Origin: an uncultured Candidatus Bathyarchaeia archaeon
GTDB taxonomy: Archaea > Thermoproteota > Bathyarchaeia > 40CM-2-53-6
Assembly: GCA_964394935.1 (NCBI GenBank)
Contig: CAYMZN010000001.1
Location: 55,210-119,209 of the forward strand
Length of the DNA: 64,000 nt
Reading direction: 5' to 3'
In this document: in pieces, positions 5,561 to 26,324 of the stretch
Layout of the letters: every line of letters begins with the position of its first letter
Numbering within the stretch: the stretch's first letter is position 1
Notes under the pieces: model-generated
The model's input: only the letters and a program-made list of their open reading frames with translations
Told to the model about the DNA's origin: nothing
Database searches by the model: none
Made by a program: the position numbers and the translations under genes

Positions 5561-6856
5561 TCAGTCGTAGTACTCGAGGCCGAGGTGGGTGATCAATTCT
5601 TCTCCACGTAGATACCTCAACGTATTCTTCAGCTTCATCAATTGGATGAACAAGTCGTGTTCGGGATAAAGACCAGGCGGGGTCATCGGGCTCTTAAAGT
5701 AGAAGCTGAGCCATTCCTGGATTCCCTTCATGCCGCTGCGCTGCGCAAGATCTAGGAAAAGCGCCAAGTCTAGCACGATTGGCGCAGCTAGGATGGAATC
5801 GCGGCAGAGGAAGTTTATTTTGAGCTGCATCGGGTACCCGAGCCATCCGAAGATGTCGATGTTGTCCCAGCCTTCCTTATTATCACCTCTCGGAGGATAG
5901 TAGTCTATTCTCACCTGGTGCCGGATATTTCCGTACAAGTCCGGATACATGTCGGGCTGAAGTATGTACTGCAGGACGCCCAGCTTGGACTCTTCCTTCG
6001 TCTTGAAACTCTCCGGGTCATCCAGCACCTCGCCATCCCGGTTGCCTAGAATGTTGGTGGAGTACCATCCGCGGAGGCCGAGCATGCGCGCCTTGAAACC
6101 TGGCGCAACTATCGTTTTCATTAGTGTCTGGCCGGTCTTGAGATCTTTCCCTGCAATGGGGACTTTGTTTTGCTTGGCCAGATCAATCAGGGCGGGTATG
6201 TCGACACAGAGGTTCGGAGCCGCGTTCGCGAACGGAACTCCGGTGACCAGAGATGCATAGGCGTAGATCATTGACGGAGAGATCTCTGGTGAATTGTCTT
6301 CTAGTGCCTTCTCGAAGGCCGTAAGGTTCTCGTGTTCTGGCTTAACGATCGTGTGCGCCTCTGTGGAGCCGCAGCAGATCATCACGAGCCTCGATGCGCC
6401 CGTCCTCGTCTTGAACTCTTTGATGTCCGCCACTATCTGATCTGCGAGATCTTTCTTGTTGCAGCCAACCTTCACATGCGTCCCAGTGAGACGCCTCACC
6501 CATCTCTGCTCAAAGGCACCTTTCATCGGCTTGATATCCCGAAGCGGTGTCTCTAGACTCTTCAGCAATGCTGGATCAAGAACAGCGGCTTTCGACGCAG
6601 CCATGAATGCATCGTCAGGGAAAATGTCCCAGGCGCCAAAGACAAGGTCACGGATGTCCGCCAGTGGCACGAAGTCCTTGATGAGGGGGCTCCTCTTCTC
6701 AGTTCGCTTTCCAAGCCTTATCGTTGCCATCTGAGTCAGACTGCCGAATGGCTTTGCAAGTCCAAACTTTACTGCTTCGACGCCAGCGATCAACGTCGTG
6801 CTGACAGCTCCGAGACCAACAAGCATCACGCCCAGCTTTCCTGTGGGCTGACTCAT
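5561..6856 (-). CDS. myo-inositol-1-phosphate synthase (inositol-3-phosphate synthase family)
   Basis: About 430 aa in an archaeal-type MIPS pattern (VMLVGLGAVSTTLIAG, RIDYYPPRGDNKEGWDNIDIFGWLGYP). Start set at the internal ATG (MSQPTGK); the upstream extension in the ORF track is unlikely. Confidence 0.75.
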   Translation of the reverse strand: MSQPTGKLGVMLVGLGAVSTTLIAGVEAVKFGLAKPFGSLTQMATIRLGKRTEKRSPLIKDFVPLADIRDLVFGAWDIFPDDAFMAASKAAVLDPALLKSLETPLRDIKPMKGAFEQRWVRRLTGTHVKVGCNKKDLADQIVADIKEFKTRTGASRLVMICCGSTEAHTIVKPEHENLTAFEKALEDNSPEISPSMIYAYASLVTGVPFANAAPNLCVDIPALIDLAKQNKVPIAGKDLKTGQTLMKTIVAPGFKARMLGLRGWYSTNILGNRDGEVLDDPESFKTKEESKLGVLQYILQPDMYPDLYGNIRHQVRIDYYPPRGDNKEGWDNIDIFGWLGYPMQLKINFLCRDSILAAPIVLDLALFLDLAQRSGMKGIQEWLSFYFKSPMTPPGLYPEHDLFIQLMKLKNTLRYLRGEELITHLGLEYYD

Positions 6857-7225
6857 GTCTACGCCCTTTCCCAACTCGCCGCACCTGTGATGTTCAAGCG
6901 AAGCGATATGTCGCCATAGTTCACCTTTGCGGTTCGAGTACTTCCTATACGCCAGGTCGGCTGATACTCGAGAAGCGTCACGTGATGTTAACCTGGCGCC
7001 TGGTTCCGAATGCCCAGTCGTGAATAGCCGCGCAATTGTTCCTACCGGATCGCAATTCTCCCCTTTTTCAAGTGTTCTCGTGAGACTCGTGACCGCAACG
7101 AGTATCATGATGATGCTCTGTGAGACGTAAGCATCCCAGAAGCACTGGAACCAACCGTGAGCTTCCTAAACCTAAAATGCGAACTAGGATACCCCCTAAG
7201 GAGACGGGCATTGCAAAGAAAAACC

Positions 7226-19351: not shown

Positions 19352-20205
19352 TCATGTCTGCAGGGTTCCTTTGACCAGTGTCGTATCGTATCCGAGCGGT
19401 AGAAACAGATTGACAACTGACGAGATCAAGAGTTTCACGTACGCCTCTGCATCGTAGCCGATTGATTCCTCAAATAATTCGGAGGGGACAGCGCGTTTAC
19501 TTTGCATTGTTGCTCTATCAGCGGTTACTATGTAGCGAATGCTCTGCCCCGCGTGAATGTATCCTCCTTCTCTCCGTAGTTGTTGAGCAGCAACTACTTG
19601 ATGGCTGAAGCTTTTGTATTCTTCAGGTGATTTGCTCAACCTCTTCTCGAGTGTCAGCTTCTCGGCAGGGACTTCGCCGCTTCTAATCATGCGTATGTAC
19701 TTCCTTGTCACTTCAAGCGCTTGCGGGATGAGTTCGCGAAGTTCTATCGAATTCGACGCACGCGAAAGAAGGATTAGGATTTCTCTTTGACAGTCGCCGA
19801 CTATGCCTGCTGTGTCATGGCGTCTGAGATCGATCCCACGGGTCTTCATTGTTCCGTCTCGGAAGATGCCGTAGTATCTATTCAGCACAGGGATGCGAGG
19901 GTTGGTCCTGGAATTTAGGAAGACTATCCATTTGTAGATTCCTTCGAAACTTATCGGCAGGTCTAGTTCCGTTTCGATCTCGCGGCATAAGTTATGGTAT
20001 TCTTGTTCTGATGCGTTCTCTTTTCTGAGCCAGAGCGAGTCCACTATCCCGTGGATGACGTGGAAGCCTCTTGATTCAGCGATGGCACTTGCCCTTTGGA
20101 GAGCTTCCCGTGCGTAGGCGCAGGTTGCGATGTGTGCATCGATCTTGCCAAACCGCGCGTTCTTGAACCCAAGGTAGCCGACTGCTCGGTTTCGATTTAC
20201 TCATC
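19352..20205 (-). CDS. family-B DNA polymerase homolog (inactivated), C-terminal fragment after frameshift
   Basis: The frame is open upstream of the annotated GTG with no start codon and reads NRNRAVGYLGF (motif B-like), then GFHVIHGIVDS where YGDTDS (motif C) is expected, then KTRGIDLRRHD (the KxxGxxxxRRD region). Confidence 0.65.
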
Positions 20206-20211
20206 GAGCAC

Positions 20212-21618
20212 CTATGAGCAGACTAGGATCCATTTGAGCGCGGCTTGGCGTTGATCGTATCGCGTTCGTGTCGGAGGATCCTTCGTCTCATTCCTCCAGC
20301 GTTTGTACTCGGCTCGTTTCTTGAGTAGGACCTCAAGTGAGGCGGGGACGATCCCCTGCCGGCGTTTACATATGCGGAAGCCAACCTCTGGAACACGGTT
20401 GGGCGAGTCGGGACAGCATTCGCAGTTTACGGTCTCACCGCTCAGGTTGTTCTTCGACATGATCGTCGGATACAGTGAAGAGAAGTCGACTTCGCCAACC
20501 CAATCGTGAACTCCAAACTTTGGCTCATAGACGAACCCGCCTCGGTCGGCTAGGAGAAGATTGTTTCCGTCCTTGAAGTCTTCAGGTTGAGACTTGTTCC
20601 AAGGAATCATTACTCCTCGCTTTATGGCGTGGTAGATCTGGAGCGACGACATGCTTGTTCCAATCGTACTACGCGAGGCACGTTGGAGTGGGATGATGCA
20701 TGTTCGGGCAACCTCTATGAGACCTTCGAGACCGCAGTCGGTGTCGATGAAGCTGTTGCTGTAGTCTAGGTGTAGTCGGCCCATTAGGCGGGCTGCGGTG
20801 CTACGGTAGTAGATTCTTCCGTAGCTGAAGTAGCTTCGGCCTGTGACCTCGAAGACCTGCAGCGGTGCATGCTCTCTGCCAAGTACAAGTTTGTGGAGTG
20901 CGACGTGTTCTTTGGCGCGTTGGGCTATGTACGGGAAGATGAAGAAGTCGCCGCCGTCGGTGCGTACAATATCTGGATCGAACTCGTTGACCGCCCTAAC
21001 AAGGCCTAGTAGTTTTTCGGCTTCCGAGCCTGAGTCGATCCGTCTTTCCTCATGCTCCATAGTGATGGTTATGGTGTCGATCGGGTCGTTCAGAGTCGGT
21101 ATACGCTTGCTCGTCTTCGTGCTGACGGTCAGCTTGGCGATCCTGAATGGTGGGACCTCATATTTTGTGGATTCGGATGAATCGAGAAGACGCCAAAATA
21201 CGTGGTCGTTGTGGGTTTCGGCTTCGACATAAGCTAATGGGAAGAGATCTTTCTGGTAGAGGTACATCTGTGATGATGGTATGTCAACATCATATGGTCT
21301 GTACTTGCCTCCGTAGGCTGCAAGCCGCTGGATTTTCTGTGCTAGTGCTGTAGCTTCACGGTCAGAGAAGACCTTGATCTCAAGAACCTTAGACAGTGAT
21401 GAATCGTTTGGCCTCTCGAACCTCTCAACGAAACTGTATCGGTCACTGAGTTCAGGCCGAGCGACAAGGCCCAGCAGGTCGGTGAAGTTCCCGGCGATGT
21501 GGATCCTCGGGGTCCACTCGTCTACAAGTCTTACGCATTCACCGTCGCGTTTCTTCAGCCAAATAACCATGCAGCCTGATTTTGGGTAGAGGTCGAAGAG
21601 CCAGCCTTCTGTCTTCAC
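20212..21618 (-). CDS. family-B DNA polymerase homolog (inactivated), N-terminal exonuclease + palm motif A fragment
   Basis: Motif A EVDFSSLYPTIM is intact. Exo I is DVD instead of DIE, and Exo II is DGGDFFIFPYI instead of NxxxFDxxY. The ORF ends inside motif B (YDQRQAALKWIL...stop). Confidence 0.75.
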   Translation of the reverse strand: MKTEGWLFDLYPKSGCMVIWLKKRDGECVRLVDEWTPRIHIAGNFTDLLGLVARPELSDRYSFVERFERPNDSSLSKVLEIKVFSDREATALAQKIQRLAAYGGKYRPYDVDIPSSQMYLYQKDLFPLAYVEAETHNDHVFWRLLDSSESTKYEVPPFRIAKLTVSTKTSKRIPTLNDPIDTITITMEHEERRIDSGSEAEKLLGLVRAVNEFDPDIVRTDGGDFFIFPYIAQRAKEHVALHKLVLGREHAPLQVFEVTGRSYFSYGRIYYRSTAARLMGRLHLDYSNSFIDTDCGLEGLIEVARTCIIPLQRASRSTIGTSMSSLQIYHAIKRGVMIPWNKSQPEDFKDGNNLLLADRGGFVYEPKFGVHDWVGEVDFSSLYPTIMSKNNLSGETVNCECCPDSPNRVPEVGFRICKRRQGIVPASLEVLLKKRAEYKRWRNETKDPPTRTRYDQRQAALKWILVCS

Positions 21619-21869
21619 TTCAGCTGCTCCTTCATTCGTCTTTCAAGTTCGGTGAGTCTCTTGTGATTCGCGAACAGCATCGAGAGCAGTAATGGGAACT
21701 CCTTCACCGATGAAGCGAGGACTCCGGCGGCTGAGGCGTAGAGCTTGCATTGGTTCATGAGGTCCTCGAAGATCGCCCGGTCCTCGACTCTGAGGAACTG
21801 TTTGAACTTGTTCATCTTCGCAAGTTCTTGCTCGACGACGATCCGCCAAGATGGGACGGTTCTCCCCAT
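21615..21869 (-). CDS. hypothetical small alpha-helical protein (84 aa)
   Basis: Its stop overlaps the polB homolog start by 4 bp (ATGA); it begins 5 bp after the RadB-like gene. Confidence 0.4.
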   Translation of the reverse strand: MGRTVPSWRIVVEQELAKMNKFKQFLRVEDRAIFEDLMNQCKLYASAAGVLASSVKEFPLLLSMLFANHKRLTELERRMKEQLK

Positions 21870-21873
21870 CCCC

Positions 21874-22899
21874 CTACCCCTCCACGTAATCTTCGAGGAA
21901 TCGGTCAGTATGGTCTTCTCGATGTGAGATCTTTCTGATCGGCAATGGTTTGTGATGTGCCAAGGTGAATCGTGTAAACGCGTCGCGGCCTTCGGCGATG
22001 ATTGTTGTGTGTGCGGTTTGTATGAGGGCTCCGTCGAATGGTTTGATGTCTTGGCGGAAACTTGTTGCGATCACACAAGAACCTGTGATTTCGGCGATCG
22101 CGGACAACGAACGTAGTACTCGTTGAAAGACACGATAGGCTTCCTGTCTATCTTTGATCTCCGGATCTTGGAAAAGCTCAGTTATGTCTGAGACGATTGC
22201 AAGTTTGGAGTTGTAACGTGCTAGGGCGCTGGACAGCTTTTCGGTCAGTAAAGATGCGAGCTGGAAGTACGTGAATGCACGGCTGATATGTACGCGGGAC
22301 AATGCGAGCTTAGGTTCGATTCCGTGTTCGATCGCATATTTGGATACGGCGTAGGCGTCGAAGCTGTTTCCACCATCGATACAGACCGTGTCTGAATTCA
22401 ATCCGATCGGATGGACAAGCTGAGCTCGGACACAGAGGAGCTCAGCCAGTGACCTTGAGAAAGGGTAACCTTGAAAGACCACAAACTGTCCCGTGGTCAA
22501 GTGGACAAGCTCGTCCAGTTTCTCGATCCCTGTAGTGAGTATCTGCTCCTCTGCGGCAAGACGAGCGTTCCGTGGCCTGATTGTCTCGAGAGGTTGGAGC
22601 GGCAACTCAGCGAGGAGCGCTGCTTTAAGGTATTTTGGGTTGACGTAGGTGGCTCTGGCATGGGGTAGCCGTGTGTGTTCGCAATGCATGACATCTTCTA
22701 AGCCAAACCCACAATCTGGGCAGACTCCATCGAACGCTGCTTGCACACCTTTGGCTTCTACAAAACGTCGTGAGATCAGCAAGACTTCGTCGCATAACCC
22801 ACAGTAGTAGACCCATGCTTCGACTTTACGGGTGTAGCATGATTGTTGTGCGAGCTCTTCGAGCTTCCACGTCTTTGCGGTATTGATCTGGAGTGTCAC
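21874..22899 (-). CDS. RadB-like RecA-fold protein with N-terminal zinc ribbon and degenerate Walker A (pseudo-ATPase)
   Basis: N-terminal CGLCDEV...CPDCGF. The core aligns to archaeal RadB (TTGIEKLDELV..GQFVVFQGYPFSRS..TVCIDGGNSFDAY..ALSRV). The P-loop GxxxxGKT is replaced by QGYPFSRS, so the lysine is absent. A Walker B-like IVSDITE is present. Confidence 0.6.
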   Translation of the reverse strand: MTLQINTAKTWKLEELAQQSCYTRKVEAWVYYCGLCDEVLLISRRFVEAKGVQAAFDGVCPDCGFGLEDVMHCEHTRLPHARATYVNPKYLKAALLAELPLQPLETIRPRNARLAAEEQILTTGIEKLDELVHLTTGQFVVFQGYPFSRSLAELLCVRAQLVHPIGLNSDTVCIDGGNSFDAYAVSKYAIEHGIEPKLALSRVHISRAFTYFQLASLLTEKLSSALARYNSKLAIVSDITELFQDPEIKDRQEAYRVFQRVLRSLSAIAEITGSCVIATSFRQDIKPFDGALIQTAHTTIIAEGRDAFTRFTLAHHKPLPIRKISHREDHTDRFLEDYVEG

Positions 22900-25254: not shown

Positions 25255-25683
25255 TCAAGTTTTGAGGATAAGCAATGAGGCGGACGAAAGTGTATGGAGA
25301 GACTCATGAAAGTTATTCTTTAACGAGCAGCCCGGAGGGCGCGCTTTCCAGAAGACAGTCGAAGACTGTTTCCCTTGCAATAGGCTCTGAGTCTCCTCTG
25401 GAGTGAGGGTCTTCTCGATTCCCAATCTGCAATGCCAATCATAGAGGCAATGCCTAACCAGCTTCACTATCTTGCCTCTGAGATGCGACGGAACCACTTC
25501 CTTGGGAGTTCGTTTCGAGAAACGTGTAGCCTCGAGAGTGAAAATGCACTTCTCCCATGTCTCGCCGTCTCTTGCTACGGTCTCGCCGGTCTTCTCAACC
25601 GCAACGACTCTTCCTTTCAGTCTTCGGCCGCTGGCAGTCAGGGAACTCACTTGGGATACTTCTTGGCTGCCCATTGTTTGCAT
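25255..25683 (-). CDS. hypothetical protein
   Basis: ORF 22 bp upstream of radA; overlaps the corrinoid-protein gene 3' end by 37 bp. No motif recognised. Confidence 0.25.
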   Translation of the reverse strand: MQTMGSQEVSQVSSLTASGRRLKGRVVAVEKTGETVARDGETWEKCIFTLEATRFSKRTPKEVVPSHLRGKIVKLVRHCLYDWHCRLGIEKTLTPEETQSLLQGKQSSTVFWKARPPGCSLKNNFHESLHTLSSASLLILKT

Positions 25684-26324
25684 ACGTTTGCTCCTTCTAC
25701 GGCATCTCTGCCGTAGCCGTCGGCGCCCATTGATTCTGCAATCTCCATGTTGAGGGGGGCACCTCCGACCAGTGTCTTCGAGCCAATCTGAGCCTTCCGA
25801 ATTGCGTCTATTACTTCGCTCATGTGCGGAAAGGTCGTCGATAGCAATGCTGACATTGCGACTACGTCAGCTGAGACCTCTTTTGTTTTCGCCAAGAAAC
25901 GGTCAGCAGTGACATCGACTCCTAGGTCATGAATTTCAAATCCTGACGCTTCCACCATGCTTGCGACTATATTCTTTCCGATGTCGTGTAGGTCGCCTTC
26001 AACAGTTCCTATGACGATACGACCCTGGGCGGCAATCTCCGACGGTTTCAGATGCGCACCGAAGATCTTCATGCCTTCTTTGAAGGTCTCGCCTGCCATC
26101 ACCAACTCTGGAAGGAAGAACTCCCCCGCTTGATACTTTTGGCCGACAACCTCCATACCCTTCGCCATGCCGTTGATGACGCCCTCGTACGCGCTGACTC
26201 CTTCCTTGAGCGCCCTCTCAGCGAGAGGCTTGATGTTATCTATGTCGAACCTTACGATCGCCTCTCTCAGATTTTCAAGCATGTCTTCCCTGGTCACGCG
26301 AAGACCCTCCGGAGGCCTAGACAT
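25647..26324 (-). CDS. cobalamin-binding corrinoid protein (methyltransferase-cognate, MtmC/MtbC/MttC-like)
   Basis: N-terminal B12-binding-2 helical domain plus a Rossmann B12-binding domain with the DxHxxG motif (GDLHDIGKNIV) and SALLSTT. Confidence 0.75.
   Translation of the reverse strand: MSRPPEGLRVTREDMLENLREAIVRFDIDNIKPLAERALKEGVSAYEGVINGMAKGMEVVGQKYQAGEFFLPELVMAGETFKEGMKIFGAHLKPSEIAAQGRIVIGTVEGDLHDIGKNIVASMVEASGFEIHDLGVDVTADRFLAKTKEVSADVVAMSALLSTTFPHMSEVIDAIRKAQIGSKTLVGGAPLNMEIAESMGADGYGRDAVEGANVCKQWAAKKYPK

Follow-up and report, generated by a model that had tools for sequence, protein, structure and literature searches.

The window analyzed here, a stretch of 64,000 nucleotides (nt) from an uncultured Candidatus Bathyarchaeia archaeon (GenBank assembly GCA_964394935.1, contig CAYMZN010000001.1, positions 55,210 to 119,209), contains an open reading frame (ORF) at 21874..22899 that most likely encodes iRadA, an inactive homologue of the RadA recombinase associated with the family B DNA polymerase PolB2. 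The genes follow one another on the same strand in the order radA, iRadA after 36 nt, the small protein PPB2 of 84 amino acids (aa) after a further 4 nt, and the polymerase, whose start overlaps the PPB2 stop in the sequence GTGA. Assemblies at NCBI, ENA and JGI, with contigs of up to 148 kb, contain a called protein identical to this iRadA over its 341 aa. The gene, its parts and the small gene that follows it lie at these positions:

21874..22899, minus strand: iRadA coding sequence, 341 aa with a GTG start; a predicted ATPase-dead Rad51/RadA homologue and first gene of the PolB2 operon
21952..22542, minus strand: RecA core of the Rad51/RadA type, residues 120-316, supported by the Pfam Rad51 match over 121-280, by model confidence above 90 and by hhalign against the RadA extein
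22450..22473, minus strand: degenerate Walker A motif QGYPFSRS, residues 143-150, pairing with GEFGAGKS of RadA
21883..21906, minus strand: C-terminal tail DRFLEDYV, residues 332-339, resembling a PCNA-interacting protein (PIP) box and following a disordered linker
21615..21869, minus strand: PPB2 (arCOG07300 / DUF8156), 84 aa, starting MGRTVPSWR; its stop overlaps the PolB2 start

An earlier note on this DNA had described the protein as a RadB-like member of the RecA superfamily with a replaced P-loop and an extra zinc ribbon at the N terminus. The RecA/Rad51 fold is real, as the results of Pfam, AlphaFold2 and Foldseek show. Pfam Rad51 matches residues 121-280 at 32.3 bits (cut-off 22, E 8e-8), the core has a predicted local distance difference test (pLDDT) score above 90 in an AlphaFold2 model of the 341-aa protein built on 106 homologues, and Foldseek retrieves RAD51, Dmc1, RadA and XRCC3/RAD51C/D structures at E ~1e-13. 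Compared with isolated RadA ATPase domains, the target-normalised template modelling score is 0.75-0.80 and the root-mean-square deviation 2.4-3.5 Å. The RadA, Dmc1 and Rad51 profile models match at E ~1e-6, and the family profile aligns by hhalign with the window's own RadA, intein removed, at 88% probability over 205 columns. The motifs named in the earlier note all occur: residues 120-132 form the motif ILTTGIEKLDELV, residues 172-183 the motif VCIDGGNSFDAY and residues 199-210 the motif ALSRVHISRAFT.

The statement that the ATP site is dead also stands. In the hhalign alignment, the RadA Walker A motif GEFGAGKS falls on QGYPF-SRS, the catalytic-glutamate motif DSEG falls on DGGN with Glu replaced by Gly, and the sensor motif TNQV falls on ATSF, from which the sensor Gln is gone. 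Among 108 full-length relatives of the ORF with 35-100% identity, the family consensus at Walker A is Q-G-x-P-(F)-S-x-S-L, with the Lys not conserved and its place taken variably by H, R or N. The pattern GxxxxGK[ST] occurs in none of these 108 homologues, in none of the 145 newly returned proteins among the best 150 of a profile search over 1.84 billion representative proteins, and in none of the 83 loci surveyed by tblastn. These alignments indicate that iRadA is unable to bind ATP in the canonical manner, and it would be expected to neither bind nor hydrolyze ATP nor form recombinase filaments. Judged by profiles and alignments, the protein also lacks what would characterize a RadA/Rad51 recombinase, namely the helix-hairpin-helix (HhH) N-domain, Walker A/B, a full L2 region and an equivalog score. 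The Pfam HHH_5 model of the RadA N-domain matches the neighboring RadA and does not match iRadA, hhalign shows the L2 region of iRadA to be some 8-9 residues short of RadA's, and the recombinase profiles TIGR02236 and NF003301 reach only 23.7 bits (cut-off 361) and 27.2 bits (cut-off 259).

The narrower RadB label did not survive the profile search. The RadB model TIGR02237 was the weakest profile match, at 17.4 bits (cut-off 172.4, E 3e-3), and NF006861 did not match at all. RadB, the euryarchaeal RadA paralogue, likewise has a short Rad51 fold without HhH. It differs from iRadA in having a functional P-loop, in binding ATP and in not being encoded with PPB2 or PolB2. We rejected RadB identity because RadB keeps the P-loop that is missing here and gives the weakest profile score.

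The genomic neighborhood supplies the family label. Makarova and Koonin, and later Makarova et al. 2014 (PMC4104785), reported an operon of PolB2, an 'inactivated RadA' and arCOG07300. The iRadA family has been known since 2013-2014 (PMC4104785, PMC11791011). Timinskas et al. 2025 named the subunits PolB2, iRadA and PPB2 and proposed a PolB2:iRadA:PPB2(x3) heteropentamer acting as a translesion 'mutasome' (PMC11791011); the same source lists operons of the iRadA-PPB2-PolB2 type for Bathyarchaeota and Nitrososphaerota. BLASTP aligns our protein, with 43% identity over 144 residues (E 1e-34), to a Bathyarchaeota iRadA already published, which supplement file 2 of PMC11791011 lists alongside the Bathyarchaeota PolB2 UCF59054. 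The 84-aa ORF is 35% identical to published PPB2 (E 6e-17), its orthologues carry the label PF26485, and its N terminus has the MGRT arm with R3 and R9, matching the published PPB2 signature of a conserved MGRT arm with Arg3 and Arg9 (PMC11791011). The order radA, Rad51-like gene, DUF8156, PolB recurs in two relatives whose proteins are 74% and 38% identical.

For a wider view of this neighborhood, 80 loci were fetched, one genome per species. Most came from Bathyarchaeia, with others from Nitrososphaeria, one contig of a Hadarchaeota-labelled assembly and a few contigs binned as bacteria. The tblastn survey covered 83 loci, and 81 had a complete 5' end. PPB2 was found directly downstream in 52 of the 83 and PolB2 in 69, even at ~30% identity. 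The conserved arrangement reaches Nitrososphaeria and the Hadarchaeota-labelled contig. We conclude, with a probability of about 0.82, that ORF 21874..22899 is iRadA, an inactive RadA homologue that serves as a non-enzymatic subunit of the PolB2 mutasome. Genes annotated as 'hypothetical protein' or 'Rad51' in Bathyarchaeia and Nitrososphaeria can accordingly be corrected to iRadA, PolB2 translesion polymerase subunit.

Since its ATPase motifs are gone and it adjoins a real radA, the gene might instead be read as a functionless relic of a radA duplication. Conservation effectively refutes this reading, which we regard as highly improbable: 106 iRadA sequences, down to 35% identity, share 17 invariant and about 50 near-invariant positions, and conservation extends to the zinc cysteines, the tail motif and the operon. 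At E <= 1e-3 the profile search yielded 1867 relatives, with 669 representatives remaining at E <= 1e-10, and dozens of independent assemblies have the ORF intact.

Several surveyed loci depart from the common layout. In one soil clade (L025, L028, L030, L031, L033, L035, L036, L050 and L060) PolB2 lies downstream on the opposite strand, and tblastn found no PPB2 directly after iRadA in these nine loci; either the gene order has been reshuffled or PPB2 has diverged beyond detection. Six loci carry very divergent RadA-like and PolB-like genes, which share 22-32% identity with RadA and PolB2 of the window, immediately upstream of iRadA (L015, 3936-6899; L016, 3066-6028; L018, 3925-6887; L029, 3830-6831; L034, 2649-5650; L069, 3928-6905), a pair that may be a second, more diverged polymerase module. 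The operon was also seen in bins labelled Methylomirabilota, Dormiibacterota, Acidoferrum, Acidiferrales and 'bacterium' (L018, L019, L034, L041 and L044); these contigs are probably mis-binned Bathyarchaeia because their RadA is 75% and their PolB2 57-59% identical to those of the window.

The polymerase downstream of PPB2 is divided by a short predicted intron of the bulge-helix-bulge (BHB) type into two coding parts:

20214..21618, minus strand: PolB2 exon 1, residues 1-468 and the first base of the Phe469 codon; decayed exonuclease, F348-K-D-G351, D358-R359 and motif A D378FSSLYP
20182..20213, minus strand: predicted BHB intron, 32 nt, interrupting PolB2 motif B, with the frame restored on predicted splicing
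19352..20181, minus strand: PolB2 exon 2, residues 469-744; remainder of motif B, motif C H-G-I514-V-D-S and thumb

Motif A (D378FSSLYP) is intact. Motif C reads H-G-I-V-D-S at position 514, having lost the first Asp of DxD as in the Sulfolobus IID version, and the aspartate position of Exo II is occupied by Ile, with only a partial match to the exonuclease domain. All loci have [FWL]-K-x-[AGS]...A-D-R-G-G-F just before the D(K/R) motif; in the window this is F348-K-D-G351 followed by D358-R359. By its sequence, the partner polymerase is assigned to the PolB2 type on the lost exonuclease site, IVD in place of DxD and the FxxA-like loop. In the published work this loop is regarded as the part of PolB2 that binds iRadA, by mimicking the motif through which RadA oligomerises (PMC11791011). 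At the other end of the partnership, most members of the iRadA family end in a conserved x-x-[FT]-L-E-x-[YF]-[MLV], which reads DRFLEDYV in the window and QFLEDYM or QTLESYL in relatives. The window version has Leu at position 4, an aromatic residue at 7 and a hydrophobic one at 8, and residues 320-341 of the AlphaFold2 model have pLDDT below 50. A motif binding the PCNA clamp is often found at iRadA C termini, where it is frequent and not obligatory (PMC11791011).

The likely assembly is inferred from published AlphaFold-Multimer models of orthologous complexes. The pocket of iRadA that in a recombinase receives the FxxA motif of a neighboring RadA would instead take the PolB2 loop F348-K-D-G351. 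One iRadA would join each PolB2, with the MGRT arm of one PPB2 of the trimer inserted between both, near the DNA or primer-template, and the disordered tail DRFLEDYV would tether the complex to PCNA. In such an arrangement iRadA would act as a scaffold for PolB2 as a damage-tolerance polymerase. Escherichia coli Pol V Mut (UmuD'2C-RecA-ATP) and the ImuA-ImuB-DnaE2 cassette offer a parallel: in each, a mutagenic polymerase induced by damage has a RecA-family protein, RecA or ImuA, as a stoichiometric subunit. The likeness extends to a polymerase that binds its RecA-family subunit via a mimic of the filament interface (PMC11791011). The bacterial polymerases, however, belong to the Y or C family and not to B, and the RecA of Pol V is active and binds ATP, whereas iRadA is a dedicated dead paralogue.

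Published iRadAs of the PolB2 (Dpo2) operon, among them Sulfolobus islandicus F0NED7 and members of arCOG04294/07763/08101 (PMC4104785, PMC11791011), have the same Rad51/RadA core without HhH, have lost the ATPase residues and end in a tail resembling a clamp-binding motif, and their operons share the iRadA-PPB2-PolB2 order, PPB2 with an MGRT arm, and PolB2 with IVD/IID and the FxxA-like loop. The iRadA of the window differs from them in an N-terminal four-cysteine (C4) ribbon domain of about 80 residues, in its position directly behind radA, and in a partner PolB2 with a predicted BHB intron. The ribbon and the upstream recombinase gene are placed as follows:

22663..22827, minus strand: C4 zinc ribbon of iRadA, residues ~25-79, with C33, C36, C60 and C63
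22936..25233, minus strand: RadA recombinase, 36 nt upstream of iRadA, matching NF003301 at 418 bits
23566..24891, minus strand: intein of RadA, 442 aa, inserted in the P-loop, with Intein and LAGLIDADG Pfam matches

The ribbon is, as the earlier note had it, extra to canonical RadB, and canonical RadA has none either. Its four cysteines, arranged as CxxC at 33-36 and 60-63, are invariant in the 108 full-length homologues, and the second knuckle reads C-P-x-C-G-F. In a model of residues 1-100, pLDDT is about 90 over residues 30-70 and the cysteines lie at beta-hairpin knuckles. The sole Pfam hint is a sub-threshold match to Zn_ribbon_6 (E 0.096). With its C4 zinc module ahead of a RecA-fold domain, the protein has a superficial likeness of layout to bacterial RadA/Sms, which joins a C4 finger to an active KNRFG ATPase and a Lon-like domain, and iRadA might on this basis be an archaeal counterpart of that branch-migration helicase. 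Walker A, KNRFG and the Lon-like C-terminal domain are all absent, no Sms or bacterial RadA profile in Pfam or NCBIfam matches, and the core is by Foldseek of the Rad51 and not the DnaB/Sms type. The reading is refuted, as the ATPase motifs essential to a helicase are absent, and its probability is negligible; the zinc module alone is analogous.

The ribbon is not universal in the family. It is carried by 47 of the 81 iRadAs with complete 5' ends, the other 34 being ribbon-less proteins of about 245 aa, and a search for a stand-alone zinc-ribbon ORF upstream of these 34 found none. With radA directly upstream, as in 33 of the 81 loci, the ribbon is present in 31 of 33 cases, compared with 16 of 48 without it, in a set of loci that are not phylogenetically independent. 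No zinc-ribbon iRadA appears in PMC4104785, in the text of PMC11791011 or in the searched portion of its supplements. The zinc-ribbon, radA-linked iRadA is a lineage-specific variant of a known family, undescribed in the searched literature. The ribbon would be an added DNA- or protein-binding module, with RadA or single-stranded DNA (ssDNA) as plausible partners, and RadA is a candidate because the ribbon co-occurs with radA directly upstream. It is a testable hint that recombination and translesion synthesis are coupled. A further step, that ribbon-bearing iRadA is an adaptor docking the PolB2 mutasome on RadA filaments or D-loops while its ribbon binds RadA or ssDNA, we consider rather doubtful; if true, the error-prone polymerase would also serve recombination-associated synthesis, beyond lesion bypass at forks.

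The same adjacency bears on a competing account, in which the protein is a mediator or paralogue of RadA like RadB, Rad55-Rad57, the Shu complex or RAD51D-XRCC2, capping or stabilising RadA filaments, with recombination as its main task and the link to the polymerase secondary. In its favor, the window's radA precedes the gene by 36 nt on the shared strand, 33 of the 81 loci have radA immediately before iRadA, and human RAD51D gives the strongest sequence match in the PDB (E 7e-7). XRCC3/RAD51C/RAD51D complexes, which cap RAD51 filaments, are among the top Foldseek matches. Rad51 paralogues without Walker A, such as Csm2-Psy3, are established mediators, and both Csm2-Psy3, which also lacks ATPase motifs, and RAD51D-XRCC2 use the Rad51 fold as a non-recombinase scaffold. 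These complexes act on RAD51 filaments, whereas the genomic partners of iRadA are a polymerase and a small helical subunit, and we found no evidence of orthology. PPB2 and PolB2 are kept across the whole family, including the 48 loci with no radA nearby, and the RadB profile is the weakest match. iRadA also has no FxxA-type motif of its own for joining a RadA filament, residues 98-115 of the linker (93-119) having pLDDT below 50. In published modelling, PolB2 did not dock on active RadA (PMC11791011), a result with no bearing on contact between iRadA and RadA. A mediator role is on this balance unlikely, and we prefer the assignment of iRadA to the PolB2 mutasome.

Several observations weigh against that assignment. 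The published PolB2:iRadA:PPB2 complex is itself an in silico model, and the zinc ribbon is absent from it; no significant fold match for the ribbon was found in the PDB, the best having E 2.2. At the two proposed contacts, the FxxA-like motif of the window PolB2 is FKDG, with Gly at the Ala position, and the tail DRFLEDYV does not have the Gln of PIP-box position 1. With radA immediately preceding iRadA in 33 of the 81 loci, a further role directed at RadA is conceivable. Finally, PolB2 must lose its predicted intron for the operon to be functional.

This insert splits PolB2 into two called ORFs, 20212..21618 and 19352..20044, and because of it the gene is annotated as two fragments in these genomes. 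Among the 62 loci with a readable junction, most have the uninterrupted sequence TGC TCA TTC GGC TAC (C-S-F-G-Y, motif B), and 18, the window included, have inserts of 20-32 nt at the identical site (the others being L001, L003, L005, L006, L008-L012, L015, L036, L039, L040, L044, L045, L047 and L069). The inserts share a central helix of 4 base pairs (bp) formed by exon GCUC with intron GRGC (GAGC in the window), flanked by 3-nt bulges AU/A and AN/U (AG/U in the window; slashes mark the cuts). The inner hairpin stacks directly on the central helix, and the outer helix consists of 5 bp between the exons. Canonical BHB geometry places the cut after the second bulge base. Cutting there joins U to UY and thus yields, in frame at all 18 loci, the Phe codon UUY that the uninterrupted genes have (UUC in the window, whose predicted spliced junction reads UGCUCAU/UCGGCUAC). 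The base before the 3' cut varies among A, G and U, and this free variation marks it as an intron base and not the first codon position. One deviation from the BHB form is a U-pyrimidine mismatch opening the outer helix.

The minimum free energy fold of the window segment has the BHB layout at -25.7 kcal/mol, with a 5-bp central helix in an alternative register. When the motif is aligned at fixed length, 95% of cells are paired and three inner-helix pairs are changed on both sides; none of 500 shuffles reached the observed covariation score, and slid controls paired at 17-52%. The spliced 744-aa PolB2 is colinear with Pyrococcus abyssi PolB (4fm2) across motif B and matches in single stretches, Pfam DNA_pol_B at 131 bits compared with 57+56 for the fragments and NF004418 at 362 compared with 186+92. 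When a query spanning the junction was run against 5.8 billion proteins, hits above ~70% identity covered the exon-2 part only, and no continuous protein of the spliced type more than 68% identical was found among these assembled proteins. Since the high-identity hits stop at the junction, interrupted alleles are common in nature and not an assembly error; they predominate among close relatives in metagenomes, and the predicted intron recurs in many uncultured lineages. The insert is probably removed by splicing of the BHB (tRNA) type, PolB2 being made only afterwards. A tRNA scan, aimed at tRNA introns, detected no tRNA genes in the window.

Four other explanations of the interruption were rejected. 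Two separate PolB genes 140-170 nt apart in every locus were an artefact of two-ORF queries, as mapping of the junction shows a continuous gene in most genomes and a 20-32-nt insert in a minority. Read-through of the TAG after Ser468, for example by pyrrolysine, meets an in-frame TAA four codons on, and the downstream part lies in another frame. Ribosomal hopping has no landing codon matching UCA. An independent start of the C-terminal part finds no ATG, GTG or TTG between the stop and 20044, and the junction codon is xUY with a free first base.

The known counterpart is the pre-mRNA intron of cbf5 in Crenarchaeota (Watanabe 2002; Yokobori 2009, PMC2738675), which papers of 2020 and 2025 give as the sole archaeal BHB intron in a coding region, along with one case in a 5' untranslated region in Haloferax. 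Like it, the PolB2 insert is short, of BHB type, within a coding region, patchy among relatives and presumably cut by the tRNA splicing endonuclease; unlike it, the insert interrupts motif B of PolB2, occurs in Bathyarchaeia and is predicted from sequence. If confirmed, PolB2 would be the second protein-coding gene with archaeal pre-mRNA splicing, next to cbf5, and splicing may act as a gate on the synthesis of a mutagenic polymerase. At the junction, TTTC replaces the TTC of relatives in three assemblies of soil Bathyarchaeota (L021, ~6911-6916; L023, ~6520-6525; L024, ~2800-2805), shifting the downstream part into the +1 frame; programmed +1 slippage on UUU-C, a pseudogene, or a homopolymer error common to all three could account for it.

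The neighboring radA and the region upstream of it have features of their own. The intein carries a LAGLIDADG homing endonuclease and is inserted in the RadA P-loop at GAGK/C...HN/S. Close relatives have a 323-aa RadA with no intein, and cluster mates of 1255 aa suggest a second one. Just upstream of radA, a 142-aa ORF (25255..25683, minus strand) has relatives at 57-68% identity and no Pfam match; at its start it overlaps the 3' end of the gene at 25647..26324, which encodes a corrinoid (B12-binding) protein.

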